From Kingella potus (GTDB taxonomy: Bacteria > Pseudomonadota > Gammaproteobacteria > Burkholderiales > Neisseriaceae): DNA of 32,000 nt. Every line of letters begins with the position of its first letter. Within the stretch, counting starts at the first letter, position 1. Positions 7,647 through 16,067 of this stretch are shown in pieces. Made by a program: the position numbers and the translations under genes. The notes under the pieces were generated by a model. It was not told where the DNA came from. It made no database searches and was given only the letters and a program-made list of their open reading frames with translations. The DNA is taken from contig NZ_UGJJ01000001.1 in NCBI RefSeq assembly GCF_900451175.1, positions 119,910 to 151,909 on the forward strand, in the 5' to 3' direction.

Positions 7647-7814
7647 ATGGCTTTAACCCGTTCGGAAATCAACCGCCGCAGCGAGGAAAAACGCGGCATC
7701 CGGCAAAAGGCTTTCAAGCTGGAAAAAGAAATCTTCGAGTTGTTCGAACGGAAAAATCACAATCCGCAACGTTTGAGGCCGTCTGAAACCCCGCCCGCAT
7801 GGCGGCTGTTTTGA
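7647..7814 (+). CDS. small basic hypothetical protein (55 aa)
   Basis: AAGGA RBS at 7636-7640 and ATG at 7647. Translation is MALTRSEINRRSEEKRGIRQKAFKLEKEIFELFERKNHNPQRLRPSETPPAWRLF. The 3' part reads through a DUS and a hairpin, and the stop TGA abuts the left dif-like site. Confidence 0.35.
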   Translation: MALTRSEINRRSEEKRGIRQKAFKLEKEIFELFERKNHNPQRLRPSETPPAWRLF

Positions 7815-7841
7815 GTTCGCATAATTTATATTATGTGTAAT
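7814..7841 (+). other. dif-like XerC/XerD site, left prophage junction (attL)
   Basis: AGTTCGCATAA-TTTATA-TTATGTGTAAT, compared with E. coli dif GGTGCGCATAA-TGTATA-TTATGTTAAAT. It shares 21 identical bp (7816-7836) with the site at 16040-16067. Confidence 0.8.
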
Positions 7842-7934
7842 TTCAATGCATTAGAAAATTTTAGCACAAAATTGCAAATTTATGATAAGCTCAAATTTCA
7901 CATTTAAACAACACTTTTACGGGAAATTTAACAG

Positions 7935-8141
7935 ATGGCGTTCTACATATTTTTAATAGGGGCAATCGGCATTGGGCTGATAATCGTCATAGAATTAATT
8001 TTTGATGGCCTGTTTTTCAAATGGTGCAAAAAACAAGACCAAATTGCAGAAATAGAATTAAATGCACTACTCAAAAAAACGGAAAATGAATTTTTTGAAC
8101 AATTAAAACCCTTTTTGGATGAAACAAAGGAAAAAAACTAA
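7935..8141 (+). CDS. small single-pass membrane protein (68 aa), prophage cargo
   Basis: N-terminal hydrophobic helix (FYIFLIGAIGIGLIIVIELIF) followed by a charged helical tail. The stop TAA is directly followed by the next ATG. Confidence 0.55.
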   Translation: MAFYIFLIGAIGIGLIIVIELIFDGLFFKWCKKQDQIAEIELNALLKKTENEFFEQLKPFLDETKEKN

Positions 8142-8363
8142 ATGGAAGTTTCAAAATTCATGATATTCAGCGGGCTAACAATCTCCGTATTTTCAATCAT
8201 CGTAACGATTGCCCTTATTTACTTCGGTTGCAAAATAGCCATGCAATACGAAAAAGAAAAAAAAGCAGAAAAAGCAAAAGACCAACAAATTAAACTTGAT
8301 ATGCTTGCAGCATTGCAAAAGCTGGCCGAACAAAAGGAGAAAGGGCAGGGCGGTAATACCTGA
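8142..8363 (+). CDS. small single-pass membrane protein (73 aa), prophage cargo
   Basis: Hydrophobic helix (MIFSGLTISVFSIIVTIALIYFG) followed by a K/E-rich tail. It abuts the previous ORF. Confidence 0.55.
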   Translation: MEVSKFMIFSGLTISVFSIIVTIALIYFGCKIAMQYEKEKKAEKAKDQQIKLDMLAALQKLAEQKEKGQGGNT

Positions 8364-8730
8364 ACCCCGCTTTTTTTTCTATTGAACCCACCCTAACACT
8401 TGCTACAAAGAAGATGCTTTTACGCAAGTGTTTTCCCTCCCTTCTCCGCTTCGCTTCGCGCTGCGCTTAACCTTCGCCCTTTGGGGCGTTCTTTTTTTTA
8501 GCTTCCCCCGCCAGCGGGCGGGGTCGGGCTTGAATTCTGTAAAGTGGCTAAACTACACCCACTAACACAACTCAACTAAAAACGGCCGATGATATGATCG
8601 GCCGTTTTCATTTTCGCACGGGTGTTCTAATCCCTAAGCTCTGCGCCCTCCGGTTGCATTATGTCCCACCCAGCCGGAAAGACGAAAGCAAAAGGGCTTT
8701 TGCCTTTCCGGCTCTCCCATCCCTTTTAAA

Positions 8731-8828
8731 CCCACCCAAACGCGACGCACCCGAAAGGGTAGGCTGTTTTTTCCAGTTTCTTTCAAAATATCATTTGATT
8801 TTGAAAAAACTGGAAACAAACCGCCACT
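8731..8828 (+). repeat. structured repeat copy R1 (CCCACCC motif, small hairpin, then a long bulged hairpin at 8762-8825)
   Basis: Similar to the copies at 9657-9748 and 10068-10163. Arms 8762-8789 and 8798-8825 pair, leaving one unpaired C in each arm. Confidence 0.8.
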
Positions 8829-8910
8829 TTTTGCCTTTCGAGCGCATCACTCCCACCCTTTTTTTTCGGTACCGGAGATGCTGGCACAAGGCCGAGCAGC
8901 AACCCGTTAC

Positions 8911-9199
8911 GTTACAAGGCCGCTTTGATTCGGGCGGGGGCTGTCAGCCCAGTCATCGCAGGCGTTCATATGGGTCTACGTGATTAAAAAAAATTTGGAT
9001 TGGAAAGTAAAGCGGTATTCATAACGAAATGTAAAGAGCATGAGAAAGCAAGTAGGCTTTCCCATGCTCTTTACATTTCGCTACAAACCTTCCGCTTTAC
9101 TTTCCAATCCAAATTTTTTTGAAACACTCCGCCCCATACGAACTGCGATAACTGGACCGACAGCTATAAACCCCGCCCGAATCAAAGCGGCCTTGTAAC
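8911..9199. repeat. 289-bp imperfect palindrome (candidate ssDNA hairpin: packaging signal or complementary-strand origin)
   Basis: Perfect 29-bp outer arms (8911-8939 / 9171-9199), perfect 29-bp inner arms (8987-9015 / 9092-9120) and perfect 18-bp arms (9025-9042 / 9063-9080). The apex is near 9051-9056. The segments between the outer and inner arms (8940-8986 / 9121-9170) match only imperfectly. Confidence 0.85.
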
Positions 9200-9287
9200 T
9201 TCACTAGCTGTTTGCCCCGCCGCCAGCTCCTCCAGTCCCGAGCTGTATGGGGGCATACCTTTTTAACCATAGTTAAGGAAATTTGTT

Positions 9288-14071: not shown

Positions 14072-14075
14072 GGCC

Positions 14076-14375
14076 TTATCCTTTTTCGCCTTGTTTCAAA
14101 GATTTGAAATCAATGGCTTTAAATTTTTGACCTTTACCGCTAACAACCATTTCAACGGTTAAAACAGCATCAAAGGGAAATTGCAGACCTTTGAACCGTT
14201 CAAAATTGGCCGAGCCGCCAAAGTCATACTCTGTTGAGGCCATACCTAAAGCATTGCCTTGGCTTTCATCCATTGGAGTAGCTGCAATAATGCGGCAGTA
14301 GTCAAATAGTTTTCCGTCAATGTTGCCATTAAACTTTTTTACGCCCATGATTGAGGCTTGAACTTGTAATTGCAT
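14076..14375 (-). CDS. hypothetical protein in the position of the ssDNA-binding (gene V-like) protein
   Basis: 99 aa, immediately downstream of rep as in other inoviruses. The function is assigned from position only. Confidence 0.5.
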   Translation of the reverse strand: MQLQVQASIMGVKKFNGNIDGKLFDYCRIIAATPMDESQGNALGMASTEYDFGGSANFERFKGLQFPFDAVLTVEMVVSGKGQKFKAIDFKSLKQGEKG

Positions 14376-14428
14376 GATGTTTCCTTTTTAAGTTTTTGCG
14401 CGTTCACCAAGCCCACGCGCTAATTAGG

Positions 14429-15718
14429 CTATAAAAAATATTTAAAAAACTTTTCAGAGTTTTCGCCAAAGTGTTTTTGCTGCCAATTTGCGCCGTAAAT
14501 GCGTTCGCATTCATCAGGATCTTCTTTTGAGAGTTCTAAGATTGCTTCCAATCTAGAAATCTCTTCATCTTCAGAAGCCGTTAAATCATAAGCAAATTTA
14601 TTATGTCTTCTCATTGCCTCTGCTTTTTCTGAAATATGCTCCATCCATTCAGATCGATTATGAAAATCGGAAGAATGGTTATAGTATTCAGCAGCAAAAG
14701 CATGAGGCTGAAGACGCTTAGGAAGTAAATCGTCTTCATTTGAAAGCATGTCGTAAATTTGTTCTTTGGTTTTTTGACCTTGATAGGCCTCTTTGAACGC
14801 AACCAACCATTTACCGCATTGGCGTTTAATAAACTGTTTGCCGCGCTCTAATGTCATTTCAAAGATTTTTTGTGCAGAATCAGCTTGTTTGGTTACTGAT
14901 ACTCTGCTCAATTTTTCACAAATGGGATATGCGCCGCAGAAATATTGACCTGGATAAAGCAGGCTATCGAATGGGATAACAATATCTCTAGCTTTCATTT
15001 CTACTTCAAAACGTGTCCAGTTGCTGCTTACATCGCCAAGCTGTTTACCTTTTTCGTAAACACGAACATAGCGCGAGGATTCACGGGAACCAACGTAATA
15101 GGTTTTGCCTTTTTGGGTATCTGATTCCCAATCTGTGCCAACTGATTCACCCGCAGGCATACGCGCACGATGACGGGTAAAAAGGCCGTCTAATCGGTCT
15201 TGTTTTGCCTGTTCTGGTGAATATTCGCCGTTGAAAAAATCCTTTGCTAAATCAATGCGTGTAATTCGTGCACCGTAACATTTAATGATGAAATCATATA
15301 AACGGGATTCCCAACCGTTTAAAGCCGCCATGCAGCCTGTTGCCGTCATTTCAACAAGAATAGTGTCATTGTTGCCGCCGATATGAACGCGGCCATATTG
15401 GACTGCTTCATCTCCCATTTGGTAACAGTCGTCATAAAAACGGCCACCACTATGCTTTAATTTATGGGATACGCCAAAACCGAAAATCTGTAAAAGCTCA
15501 AATGAGATTTGCTCTATAAAATCAGAGTCTTTAGCTAAAAATGTCGTCCCTCTTGAAAATCTGTGAAGTGAATCTTTATGAATACGAAATGTGATTTGAT
15601 CGATAAAAGCAGAATCCGCCAAGCCGCGACGAAGCGGAATAGTCAAGAGTTCGCCTTTCTCATTGACTATTACTTGATCGTATTTTTCAAACCGCTCAAT
15701 TTCAATATCTGCATTCAT
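14429..15718 (-). CDS. rolling-circle replication initiation protein (Rep_trans / RstA-like)
   Basis: Motifs RITRIDLAKDF, YYVGSRESSRYVRVYEKGKQLG and WTRFEVEMKAR. ATG at 15718 with an AAGGTG RBS is preferred over the TTG at 15739 used by the ORF track. Confidence 0.85.
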   Translation of the reverse strand: MNADIEIERFEKYDQVIVNEKGELLTIPLRRGLADSAFIDQITFRIHKDSLHRFSRGTTFLAKDSDFIEQISFELLQIFGFGVSHKLKHSGGRFYDDCYQMGDEAVQYGRVHIGGNNDTILVEMTATGCMAALNGWESRLYDFIIKCYGARITRIDLAKDFFNGEYSPEQAKQDRLDGLFTRHRARMPAGESVGTDWESDTQKGKTYYVGSRESSRYVRVYEKGKQLGDVSSNWTRFEVEMKARDIVIPFDSLLYPGQYFCGAYPICEKLSRVSVTKQADSAQKIFEMTLERGKQFIKRQCGKWLVAFKEAYQGQKTKEQIYDMLSNEDDLLPKRLQPHAFAAEYYNHSSDFHNRSEWMEHISEKAEAMRRHNKFAYDLTASEDEEISRLEAILELSKEDPDECERIYGANWQQKHFGENSEKFFKYFL

Positions 15719-15766
15719 TTTGAATAAGCACCTTAACAAACCCGCGTTTGCCCCGTCTGGAAACTT

Positions 15767-15791
15767 CCCCCCCTGTTAGATAGGGGGGGGG
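15767..15791. promoter_or_regulatory. C7-N9-G9 homopolymer hairpin upstream of rep
   Basis: CCCCCCC (15767-15773), TGTTAGATA, then GGGGGGGGG (15783-15791). It lies 49-73 nt upstream of the rep ATG. Confidence 0.5.
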
Positions 15792-15911
15792 TCATCGGCT
15801 GCCGCCGCATCGCGCGCGGCTGAAGCCGCATCTGCGAATGACGGCGCACAGCCGACAACACCGCCAATATACAAACGCAGTTTTGCAGAAGTCAAAAATA
15901 AAATGCTGAAA

Positions 15912-15942
15912 ATTGGCATTTTTAAGGGTTAAAAATGCCAAT
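15912..15942. promoter_or_regulatory. perfect 13-bp inverted repeat (operator- or origin-like)
   Basis: ATTGGCATTTTTA-AGGGT-TAAAAATGCCAAT. A related compact palindrome GCATTTTTATGCC is at 15958-15970. Confidence 0.45.
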
Positions 15943-16039
15943 GTTTGCAGTAAATACGCATTTTTATGCCAAATAGTAAAAGTTATCAAAAAATTTTAAA
16001 AAGGTGCAAGCTGCTGATTTGCTTAGCAAATATATCATA

Positions 16040-16067
16040 ATTTCGCATAATTTATATTATGTTAAAT
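16040..16067 (+). other. dif site (XerC/XerD), right prophage junction (attR), probably the functional chromosomal dif
   Basis: ATTTCGCATAA-TTTATA-TTATGTTAAAT. The XerD arm is identical to the E. coli dif XerD arm and 8 of 11 XerC-arm positions match. Confidence 0.8.

Follow-up and report, generated by a model that had tools for sequence, protein, structure and literature searches.

The segment between positions 7814 and 16067 of the window (the whole 32,000-nucleotide stretch of DNA that was analysed) is an intact-looking inovirus prophage of 8.2 kb. Its Rep, RstB-like ORF, pVI, Zot and TspB-type pIII C-terminus assign it by sequence similarity to the Neisseria Nf/MDA inovirus lineage. Very probably, it is a member of this lineage that has no IS110 transposase, carries an attP mimicking dif, and is integrated by the XerC/XerD of its host. 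Integration by host Xer is a well-known phage strategy; we found no description of it among phages related to Neisseria Nf.

Extent and gene content of the prophage

The original prediction of a complete-looking filamentous prophage is borne out, with Rep_trans, an RstB-like ORF, coat B, pIII, DUF2523/pVI and Zot all present. Between 15739 and 10199 on the minus strand, family and profile matches follow the predicted inovirus order (Table 1). The predicted ends were exact and coincide with 28-bp dif-like direct repeats. The segment is AT-rich, as had been noted (GC of 40.2% vs 59.8% in the left flank and 55.4% in the right), and it does contain a single DUS, the flanks having about 1.9 per kb. 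The gene junctions had been described as very tight; about half of them are (1-8 nt), and the remaining ones measure 26-77 nt.

Table 1. Coordinates (in the window) of the prophage and adjoining features.
Feature	Position	Strand	Remarks
Probable inovirus remnant outside the element	7285-7814	+	Two regulator ORFs
Truncated HTH regulator	7285-7443	+	Outside attL
55-aa regulator ORF	7647-7814	+	Ends at attL
attL	7814-7841	+	Hybrid dif site, AGTTCGCATAA-TTTATA-TTATGTGTAAT
orf68	7935-8141	+	Small; N-terminal membrane helix, charged tail
orf73	8142-8363	+	Small; membrane helix and coiled coil
116-nt hairpin repeat, copy 1	8725-8840		Phage-specific, family D1
Imperfect palindrome, ~300 nt	8900-9210	-	One long hairpin in packaged-sense strand
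orf110	9288-9620	+	Acidic; confined to dif-type phage clade
116-nt hairpin repeat, copy 2	9646-9761		Phage-specific
orf74	9801-10025	+	Poorly conserved accessory ORF
DUS AGGCCGTCTGAA	10036-10047	+	AG-DUS dialect; only DUS within the element
116-nt hairpin repeat, copy 3	10061-10176		Phage-specific
Zot/pI-like assembly ATPase, 385 aa	10199-11356	-	PF05707 8.9e-37; phrog_197 1e-57
pVI-like minor coat protein (DUF2523), 94 aa	11365-11649	-	PF10734 1.6e-8; phrog_1242 2.6e-12
pIII-like adsorption protein, 441 aa	11676-13001	-	C-terminus matches NF041109 TspB_C 1.3e-6
29-aa hydrophobic ORF, pVII/pIX-like	13001-13090	-	Conserved in relatives
Small hydrophobic ORF, ~24-26 aa, pVII/pIX-like	13100-13180	-	Conserved translations in L004, L014
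94-aa ORF, structural module	13168-13452	-	Conserved in relatives
Major coat protein (coat B), 67 aa	13458-13661	-	PF05356 2e-8
44-aa ORF, highly basic, doubtful gene	13723-13857	-	No counterpart in L004, L014
70-aa ORF	13859-14071	-	Conserved in relatives
99-aa ORF, gene-V/RstB position	14076-14375	-	phrog_4994 2e-20
Rep (Rep_trans), rolling-circle replication initiator	14429-15739	-	PF02486 2.3e-28; phrog_453 2e-81
rep upstream region	15740-16039	-	C8...G8 hairpin ~15762-15792; best promoter-like site 15895-15866
attR	16040-16067	+	ATTTCGCATAA-TTTATA-TTATGTTAAAT

Rep has all the invariant columns of alignment A1 (dN/dS 0.075). Homologues of the 99-aa ORF are annotated as 'RstB protein' in the Inovirus D_HF records (66% identity to the OR148975.1 CDS), and we regard it as a putative ssDNA-binding protein. 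The 70-aa ORF is 87-93% identical to its counterparts in dif-type relatives and 56-63% in Nf-type relatives; for the 94-aa ORF, the equivalent of Nf ORF5, the values are 81-88% for dif-type and 36-46% for transposase-type relatives. The place of the 44-aa ORF in the predicted inovirus order is doubtful: it is not kept in relatives, and L004 and L014 have just ~60 nt where it would sit. The coat protein has the layout ascribed to it: its signal peptide ends in ANA, and a hydrophobic core separates the acidic N-terminus from the basic C-terminus. The 29-aa ORF overlaps the start of the pIII-like gene by 1 nt, lies at the same position in L004 (89%) and L014 (41%), and forms a pVII/pIX-like pair with the hydrophobic ORF of ~24-26 aa, which had been absent from the earlier gene list. 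The pIII-like protein has both a signal peptide and Gly/Ser linkers, and its C-terminal anchor is akin to TspB of Neisseria, the match to NF041109 exceeding the family cut-off; the C-terminus is 58% identical to that of L014 and the N-terminus is divergent. Zot contains both Walker A (GSPGTGKT) and Walker B (VIVDEAD) motifs (dN/dS 0.06). Family and profile searches identified no secretin gene in the element, so a host secretin is presumably used for export, as has been reported for MDAphi.

Four accessory ORFs lie on the plus strand. Transcribed away from rep, orf68 has an 81-aa counterpart in L087/L089 (dN/dS 0.16), and orf73 shares 48% identity with the corresponding ORF of L014 (dN/dS 0.20). 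At the position of orf74, L087/L089 have a 79-aa ORF with an identity of just 26%. Only three clusters among 5.8 billion proteins contain orf110 (dN/dS 0.09); its AF2 model (pLDDT 87) had no match in PDB or BFVD, and the protein is predicted to have an orphan fold.

dif-type sites and proposed integration by host Xer

Judged by sequence, both terminal repeats are dif sites for XerC/XerD, a point that the original prediction had overlooked. When the outer halves of both repeats are rejoined, 27 of the 28 positions are identical to the published dif of N. meningitidis MC58, AGTTCGCATAATGTATATTATGTTAAAT (PMC2731167). The chance expectation for such direct repeats at the ends is nil, with matches in 0 of 100 shuffles, and they coincide exactly with the boundaries of composition and homology. 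In attL a canonical, host-type XerC arm is joined to a degenerate, phage-derived XerD arm (2/11 mismatches), and in attR a phage-type XerC arm is joined to the canonical host XerD arm; attR is presumably the working chromosomal dif. L004, L087, L088 and L089 each carry an identical copy of attR at the rep end. Across three phage lineages, attR always has ATTTCGCATAA as its XerC arm and the canonical TTATGTTAAAT as its XerD arm. The XerC arm of attL varies with the host (AGTTCGCATAA, TATTCGCATAA, ATTTCGCATAA) and its XerD arm with the phage (TTATGTGTAAT, TTATGAATAGT, TTATGTGAAAA). At both ends, homology between the phages extends to the outer limit of the dif site and no further; that of the WLZKY-1 phage begins at attL and extends inward.

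Searches of the window agreed with the reported absence of an integrase, an IS110/pivNM transposase and dRS3. There was no tblastn match to the IS110 transposase in the window, no dRS3-like ATTCCC-N8-GGGAAT in the whole window with two mismatches allowed, and no recombinase among the flanking genes, the element ORFs or the rest of the window. Reading the terminal repeats as dif explains the missing recombinase, since this is the standard host-Xer strategy; the prophage most likely needs no integrase because host XerC/XerD would be borrowed. Because the end repeats correspond to dif and attP to a dif mimic, the element is an IMEX, most likely integrated by host XerC/XerD, a strategy common to CTXphi, VGJphi, Cf1c and the gonococcal genetic island (GGI). 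For the GGI, the use of Xer at dif in Neisseria is established (PMC5357621). Neither xerC, xerD nor ftsK lies within the window, and no XafT/DUF3653 Xer-activation factor was detected.

The proposed attP is a 28-bp dif mimic, ATTTCGCATAA-TTTATA-TTATGTGTAAT. It equals the junction ATTTCGCATAATTTATATTATGTGTAAT that had been predicted for the circular form, although its being a dif mimic was missed. The XerC arm and central region of attP match dif and degeneracy is confined to the outer XerD arm, a design like that of the GGI and TLCphi sites and unlike those of CTXphi (folded ssDNA) and VGJphi (central-region mismatch). The chromosomal target is inferred to be AGTTCGCATAA-TTTATA-TTATGTTAAAT. 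Host XerC/XerD would recombine the double-stranded replicative form with this dif by crossover in the 6-bp central region, which would give attL the host XerC arm and phage XerD arm, and attR the phage XerC arm and host XerD arm. Having retained the canonical XerD arm, attR could still serve chromosome-dimer resolution. Rep would drive rolling-circle replication and assembly would proceed through Zot. What the sequences show is the gene content, boundaries and dif-type ends of the element, its hybrid sites, its repeated occurrence at dif in several hosts and the purifying selection on its genes; we infer the dependence on Xer, the order of strand exchange and the present-day activity of the prophage.

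The repeats might instead be the own att sites of a new kind of recombinase, encoded by orf68, orf73, orf110 or orf74, and merely resemble dif. None of these ORFs has an assigned function, and orf110 in particular combines a confident model without a known fold relative with its restriction to the dif-type clade. However, the candidates are only 68-110 aa long and lack both recombinase motifs and family matches, the sites follow the 28-bp XerC/XerD architecture arm by arm with a fully canonical host-side XerD arm, and host Xer is the established mechanism for dif-type 28-bp sites (PMC5357621, PMC2731167). We consider a recombinase of this sort extremely unlikely.

Between the two end repeats there is no recognisable repressor, as had been observed, and two phage-type regulator ORFs are located just outside attL (phrog_4441 2.5e-10 and phrog_3887 6.4e-13). 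Both L069 and Inovirus D_HF3_19 carry a full-length 109-aa HTH homologue adjoining a dif-like site. This remnant is missing at the same locus in L087/L088 and is probably the leftover of an earlier dif-integrated inovirus.

Relatives, selection and modes of spread

The same phage type is found at pdxJ-guaA in K. potus as well as in a sister taxon, and at ubiE-glnD in Neisseria sp. WLZKY-1 and L093; the hybrid attL/attR pattern recurs in the sister-species and WLZKY-1 prophages. About 20 other relatives from Neisseriaceae contain the IS110 transposase and no dif sites. In an NJ tree without support values, the dif-type Reps form a single clade nested among transposase-type Reps. The structural genes are all intact. 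Purifying selection acts on the phage genes (dN/dS 0.03-0.22), which are also more diverged at synonymous sites (dS 0.66-1.9) than the host genes beside them (0.39-0.51).

These values bear on the alternative of a fixed relic, domesticated or decaying and passed on vertically, that entered pdxJ-guaA in an ancestor of K. potus and the sister taxon and is now immobile, its dif repeats being the scar of one ancient event. The dS of rep, zot, orf70 and orf110 (1.7-1.9) is higher by a factor of 3-5 than that of pdxJ and guaA in the flanks, and the dN/dS values indicate that the genes are maintained, with no simple co-divergence with the host. The locus is shared with a taxon whose host genes are ~86% identical, as a relic would predict, but dif is the sole target for such a phage and independent integrations would also give the same locus. 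Other observations fit a relic: the JGI metagenome and IMG/VR collections yielded no junction of an excised circle, the K. potus records are without within-species polymorphism because all three are the same sequence, and the L087/L088 copies have no called pVI and 93-aa genes. Yet a third lineage is found at dif among different genes, and the K. potus copy has a different attL plus the extra remnant. On balance, we regard a relic as unlikely. The suggested comparison with an empty pdxJ-guaA site found none, the closest pdxJ-bearing relatives having no dif beside pdxJ.

If the element spread chiefly as part of the chromosome, through natural transformation together with homologous recombination in its flanks, and Xer had no current role, both the precise dif ends within unrelated flanks (pdxJ/guaA vs ubiE/glnD) and the reciprocal hybrid attL/attR pattern would be left unexplained. 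This mode is thus very unlikely, even though Neisseriaceae are competent, DUS are dense in both flanks with one AG-DUS in the element, and Nf1 prophages have been suggested to spread by transformation (PMC7058167). Transformation could still contribute to within-species spread.

Chromosome position and cis elements

The host of the prophage, Kingella potus, is not a classical Neisseria. The locus is at about 45.5-45.9% of its 2.40-Mb chromosome. KOPS-like GGGNAGGG motifs point to the locus in 2/3 cases on the left and 8/10 on the right, counts that are too small for significance, and within the 32-kb window GC skew keeps the same sign on both sides of the locus.

The 116-nt repeat contains a central hairpin, TTTCAAAAT...ATTTTGAAA (DNA fold z-score -5.3), and is found in L004 and L014 and not in the host flanks. 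The ~300-nt palindrome (dG -131.5 kcal/mol, z-score -23) is no host repeat. Its hairpin is kept in L014, where 25 of the 115 pairs are changed on both sides and none is broken. This conserved hairpin is a candidate for the packaging signal, the complementary-strand origin or both, and would likely act as such in the proposed life cycle. Upstream of rep, the promoter-like site is weak evidence because sites in the promoter scan were no more numerous than in shuffles. The region itself is conserved in three phage lineages as far as attR, including the C8...G8 hairpin.

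End sites and route of integration

The 8.2-kb element ends in two direct 28-bp sites that have the architecture of dif, with a XerC arm, a 6-bp central region and a XerD arm. Shuffled sequences gave no such dif-like end sites (0 matches in 100 shuffles). Taken together, the left arm of attL and the right arm of attR agree at 27 of 28 positions with the dif of N. meningitidis, AGTTCGCATAATGTATATTATGTTAAAT, listed by Carnoy and Roten (PMC2731167). This architecture and this match indicate that the circular-form junction of the original prediction is the phage attP and a mimic of dif. 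The excised circular form would carry the junction ATTTCGCATAATTTATATTATGTGTAAT, and the chromosome would be left with a restored AGTTCGCATAATTTATATTATGTTAAAT.

The integrase, transposase and dRS3 repeats that the original prediction had reported as missing were not detected in the window by profiles, tblastn or a motif scan. Searches with Pfam, PHROGs, NCBIfam and PADLOC found no recombinase in any ORF and none was found elsewhere in the window. Likewise, tblastn with IS110 transposases found no such gene in the window, and no dRS3-type ATTCCC-N8-GGGAAT repeat occurs there with 2 mismatches allowed. Integration by host Xer at dif is an established mechanism that most likely explains the missing integrase. 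[quoted passage not shown] The prophage is real, and its integration most likely follows this known strategy.

The locus lies at ~1.094-1.102 Mb on the closed 2,402,620-bp K. potus chromosome CP091516.1, at ~46% of its length. KOPS-like polarity is weakly convergent on the locus, with small counts. GC skew, calculated in the window only, is negative on both sides of the locus and dominated by gene strand, so that it is uninformative on the terminus.

Two observations concern the sequence around the locus. An isocitrate lyase-thioredoxin block found left of pdxJ (920-2250) is inverted and right of guaA in L087 (19117-20339), a contig from the sister taxon; a rearrangement across the dif locus such as this one would be expected near a terminus. 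Compared with window positions 1-17161, CP091516.1 has 10 indels and 1 mismatch over 17 kb, and GCA_050432965.1 is identical to the window. Assembly errors probably account for two features of CP091516.1, its split malate synthase and its longer Rep call.

Features of the element and of the region left of attL (window positions)
Feature	Strand	Position	Sequence, match (E-value) or remark
Truncated HTH regulator ORF, 52 aa		7285-7443	phrog_4441 (2.5e-10)
55-aa regulator ORF		7647-7814	phrog_3887 (6.4e-13); ends at dif site
attL		7814-7841	AGTTCGCATAA-TTTATA-TTATGTGTAAT
orf68	plus	7935-8141	accessory
orf73	plus	8142-8363	accessory
116-nt hairpin repeat, three copies		8725-8840, 9646-9761, 10061-10176	between accessory genes, phage-specific
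Imperfect palindrome, ~300 nt		8900-9210	single hairpin
orf110	plus	9288-9620	accessory
orf74	plus	9801-10025	accessory
Rep_trans rolling-circle replication initiator	minus		PF02486 (2.3e-28); phrog_453 (2e-81)
99-aa ORF	minus		phrog_4994; homologues labelled RstB in deposited oral inovirus genomes
70-aa ORF	minus		member of inovirus gene set
Small major coat protein (coat B)	minus		PF05356 (2e-8)
94-aa ORF	minus		member of inovirus gene set
29-aa hydrophobic ORF	minus		member of inovirus gene set
Small hydrophobic ORF		13100-13180	conserved
pIII-like protein, 441 aa	minus		C-terminus fits TspB C-terminal domain model NF041109 (1.3e-6)
pVI protein (DUF2523)	minus		PF10734 (1.6e-8)
Zot/pI assembly ATPase	minus		PF05707 (8.9e-37)
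attR		16040-16067	ATTTCGCATAA-TTTATA-TTATGTTAAAT

Gene content, selection and conserved DNA structures

The ORF listing and profile searches show that the minus strand encodes an inovirus gene set between 15739 and 10199, with the Zot, pVI and pIII-type genes in canonical order and in agreement with relatives. This bears out the full inovirus gene order on which the filamentous prophage had been proposed. Rep retains every invariant column of a 14-sequence alignment, and gene callers picked start codons for it other than the one in the ORF as delimited here. Coat B is predicted from its translation to have a signal peptide, an acidic N-terminus, a hydrophobic core and a basic C-terminus. The profile search did not match the pIII-like protein to PF05616. 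Of the small ORFs, those of 29, 70 and 94 aa stand, one of 44 aa is not conserved and is doubtful, and a second conserved small hydrophobic ORF had been overlooked. The gene junctions, described as very tight, include several intergenic gaps of 26-77 nt. As had been noted, the segment is AT-rich (40.2% GC versus 59.8% and 55.4% in the flanks) and contains a single DNA uptake sequence, of the AG dialect, versus ~1.9 per kb outside. A promoter and terminator scan gave counts no higher than in shuffles.

Compared with L087, the phage genes have dN/dS values of 0.03-0.22. Their synonymous divergence is 0.66-1.9 (1.7-1.9 for rep, zot, orf70 and orf110) versus 0.39 for pdxJ and 0.51 for guaA, the adjacent host genes. 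The low dN/dS and a synonymous divergence above that of pdxJ and guaA argue that the prophages did not merely co-diverge with their hosts as inert DNA.

The palindrome between the accessory genes folds in the packaged-sense strand into a single hairpin whose stem is roughly 145 bp long (dG -131.5 kcal/mol, z -23). It is kept in the phage of Neisseria sp. WLZKY-1, where 25 of 115 pairs are changed on both sides and none is broken. The packaging hairpin of Ff is much shorter than this ~300-nt palindrome. We infer that the long hairpin acts as a packaging signal, a complementary-strand signal, or both. Together with the intact ORFs and the purifying selection on the phage genes, this conserved ssDNA hairpin is indirect evidence that ssDNA filamentous virions may be produced. 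The 116-nt repeats could be terminators, iterons or origin elements. We considered whether the palindrome and the repeats are host MITEs and ruled this out because the host flanks contain 0 copies and both are conserved with covariation in related phages.

Relatives of the element and the remnant left of attL

A profile of Rep homologues yielded 36 loci from contigs representing one genome per species. We added several deposited oral inovirus genomes and looked in all of them for dif sites, IS110 transposases and phage genes. In about 20 complete relatives, zot is followed by an IS110 transposase and there is no dif; these are of the described Nf type (PMC4471427; PMC7058167). Among the Rep-profile loci, only that of Neisseria sp. 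WLZKY-1 (L014) is without a transposase. Its Rep and Zot are 66% and 67% identical to those in the window, and two dif sites of the same polarity bracket the phage, a site with a degenerate XerD arm (TTATGTGAAAA) at the accessory-gene end and a canonical site beside rep. Further relatives were traced via contigs carrying the clade-specific orf110. L087, L088 and L089 come from a taxon with host genes ~86% identical to those of K. potus and have the phage between pdxJ and guaA; their attL is TATTCGCATAA-TTTATA-TTATGAATAGT and their attR is the same as in K. potus. Contig L093 is of the WLZKY-1 type, and the phages of L014 and L093 sit between ubiE and glnD, not pdxJ and guaA. The IS110 transposase gene is also absent from L004, another compared contig, as from L014, L087 and L093.

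The XerC and XerD arms of attR are constant across lineages, whereas the XerC arm of attL varies with the host and its XerD arm with the phage. This is the pattern predicted by reciprocal crossover in the central region. In alignments, phage-phage homology ends exactly at the outer edges of the dif sites. PdxJ homologues were found in Neisseria sp. oral taxon 020 and on metagenome contigs. None of these has dif within 10 kb of pdxJ, so synteny is broken there, and no empty site was found among them. A search of JGI metagenomes and IMG/VR for the attP-type site of an excised circle, TTCGCATAATTTATATTATGWRTART, which also matches attL, returned only two unrelated contigs. The three K. potus records carrying the element are the same sequence and are uninformative on within-species polymorphism.

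The element has its gene order in common with Nf1-4, MDAphi, Ngo-phi6-9, the oral 'Inovirus D_HF' and 'Dulem virus'. Identity to this group is 38-58% for Rep_trans, ~40-66% for the RstB-like 99-aa ORF and 30-47% for Zot, and the 70-aa and 94-aa ORFs and pVI have homologues there. The element and the Nf/MDAphi group both have a TspB-type pIII C-terminus and the Rep tree sets the element inside the group, but the N-terminal part of its pIII is unrelated to theirs. Nf-type phages carry an IS110/pivNM transposase downstream of zot and insert at dRS3, whereas the element has neither and is flanked by dif. The place of the transposase is taken by a 2.3-kb accessory region comprising orf68, orf73, orf110, orf74, the 300-nt hairpin and the three 116-nt repeats. 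In a neighbour-joining Rep tree, which has no support values, the dif-type phages form one clade nested among transposase-type phages. This nesting makes them a clean natural example of the exchange of an integration module on a conserved inovirus backbone.

Integration at dif is known from filamentous phages of other hosts. Cf1c, XacF1 and phiLf of Xanthomonas, phiRSS1 of Ralstonia, Ypfphi, CUS-1 and an oral Haemophilus inovirus have no integrase, a dif-mimic attP and a prophage at dif (PMC2731167; PMC4471427; bioRxiv 10.1101/633727). Their host families and accessory genes differ from those of the element, and the Reps of the Ralstonia phages are only ~30% identical to its Rep. The literature searched contained no report of a filamentous phage of Neisseriaceae that integrates at dif, which is not proof of absence. 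The element points to more diversity among the filamentous phages of this family than the transposase/dRS3 integrators of that literature, with at least one lineage that targets dif, most likely via host Xer. Screens in which a Neisseria filamentous prophage is defined as running from Rep to the IS110 transposase will overlook the dif type.

Two regulator ORFs lie between the terminator of pdxJ and attL. Some transposase-less inoviruses encode full-length, 109-aa homologues of the truncated HTH ORF, and a dif-like site directly follows the gene. This site is AGTTCGCATAA-TGTATA-TTATGTGAAAT in the IMG/VR contig L069 and has a perfect XerC arm in Inovirus D_HF3_19. The gene and its site lie at 1966-2321 in L069 and at 1437-1792 in L006 (OR148965.1). 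By their sites, this second group of transposase-less, HTH-bearing Neisseriaceae-type inoviruses probably also integrates at dif, making a second, HTH-bearing dif-targeting lineage probable. The remnant (7285-7814) is missing at the same locus in L087, L088 and L089, and it looks like what is left of an earlier inovirus integrated at dif. If so, the locus would be a small IMEX array; the IMEXs of Vibrio cholerae form tandem arrays at dif, with which this remnant-plus-phage arrangement can be compared. Dif-flanked arrays are worth seeking in commensal Neisseriaceae. The remnant also contains a 21-aa, very hydrophobic ORF (MKLHLQILILVVLLLLSGKAY, 7500-7565) with a good ribosome-binding site, which weakly matches the Ibs family of type I toxins (E 0.0099, short of the family cut-off). 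It is bracketed by a 23-nt direct repeat (7176-7198 and 7776-7798, 91% identical) that includes a DNA uptake sequence and may be a trace of the way in which the remnant was gained or trimmed.

IMEX class and candidate activation factors

We assigned the element among the IMEX classes of a review of Xer systems (PMC5357621) and of the XafT paper (PMC6744903). In its attP, the XerC arm and the central region resemble dif and the outer XerD arm is degenerate. This degeneracy is mild: the XerD arms of attL (TTATGTGTAAT, TTATGAATAGT and TTATGTGAAAA) differ from the canonical TTATGTTAAAT at 2-4 of 11 positions. The CTXphi type was excluded since no site on either strand scores as dif-like apart from the two direct end sites, leaving no inverted pair to fold in ssDNA. 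The VGJphi type was excluded since attL and attR have one and the same central region, TTTATA in K. potus and ATTATA in L014. No ORF, including the neighbouring HTH ORF, matched the DUF3653/XafT model PF12375, which did detect the Cf1c ORF used as a positive control. Comparison of orf110 and of the HTH family with the Cf1c ORF by hhalign gave probabilities <1%.

Like the V. cholerae phages and satellites TLCphi, VGJphi and CTXphi, which use host XerC/XerD at dif, the element is a filamentous phage for which this route is proposed. It shares a Rep_trans initiator (RstA in CTXphi), an RstB-type ORF and Zot with CTXphi, and its site design is like that of TLCphi, but DUF3653/XafT was not found in it. 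The gonococcal genetic island (GGI), an IMEX of Neisseria, targets the chromosomal dif with neither a recombinase of its own nor XafT, by a site whose XerC arm and central region are dif-like and whose XerD arm is divergent (PMC5357621; PMC6744903). A TLC/GGI site design without DUF3653 places the element closest to the GGI in site logic. The two have host family, dif target, site design and the absence of recombinase and XafT in common; however, the GGI, 57 kb in size, is a type IV secretion island and not a phage, and the XerD arm of the element is only mildly degenerate. The integration of the GGI is still unexplained, and dif-type phages are candidate partners in it.

The accessory protein orf110 forms only three clusters among 5.8 billion proteins, all within the dif-type phage clade. 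Its AF2 model is confident (pLDDT 87); no structure in PDB or BFVD shares its fold, and the protein has no match in Pfam, PHROGs, NCBIfam or PADLOC. In the dif-type clade, a GGI-like attP with a degenerate XerD arm replaces the Nf transposase, and no DUF3653 was found. We give little credence to the proposal that this clade encodes a new family of factors that activate or control Xer, or else relies in trans on the HTH-bearing dif phages whose remnant lies beside the element. The best candidate for such an activation factor may be orf110, given its modelled orphan fold and clade-restricted distribution; the small membrane proteins beside attP are weaker candidates. If the proposal were true, the new factor or the help in trans would be a handle on how XafT-less IMEXs such as the GGI integrate in Neisseriaceae.

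Two minor observations concern individual phage copies. The copies in L087 and L088 have no called pVI and 93-aa genes (L087 12165-12503 and 13945-14427), both of which are intact in L089 and L090; the missing calls may reflect decay or assembly error. In the metagenomic relative L093 (sites at 8610-8637 and 16185-16212), the central region is ATTATA at attL versus TTGATA at attR. The two differences, at positions 1 and 3, are on the XerC side and could bear on the order of strand exchange.
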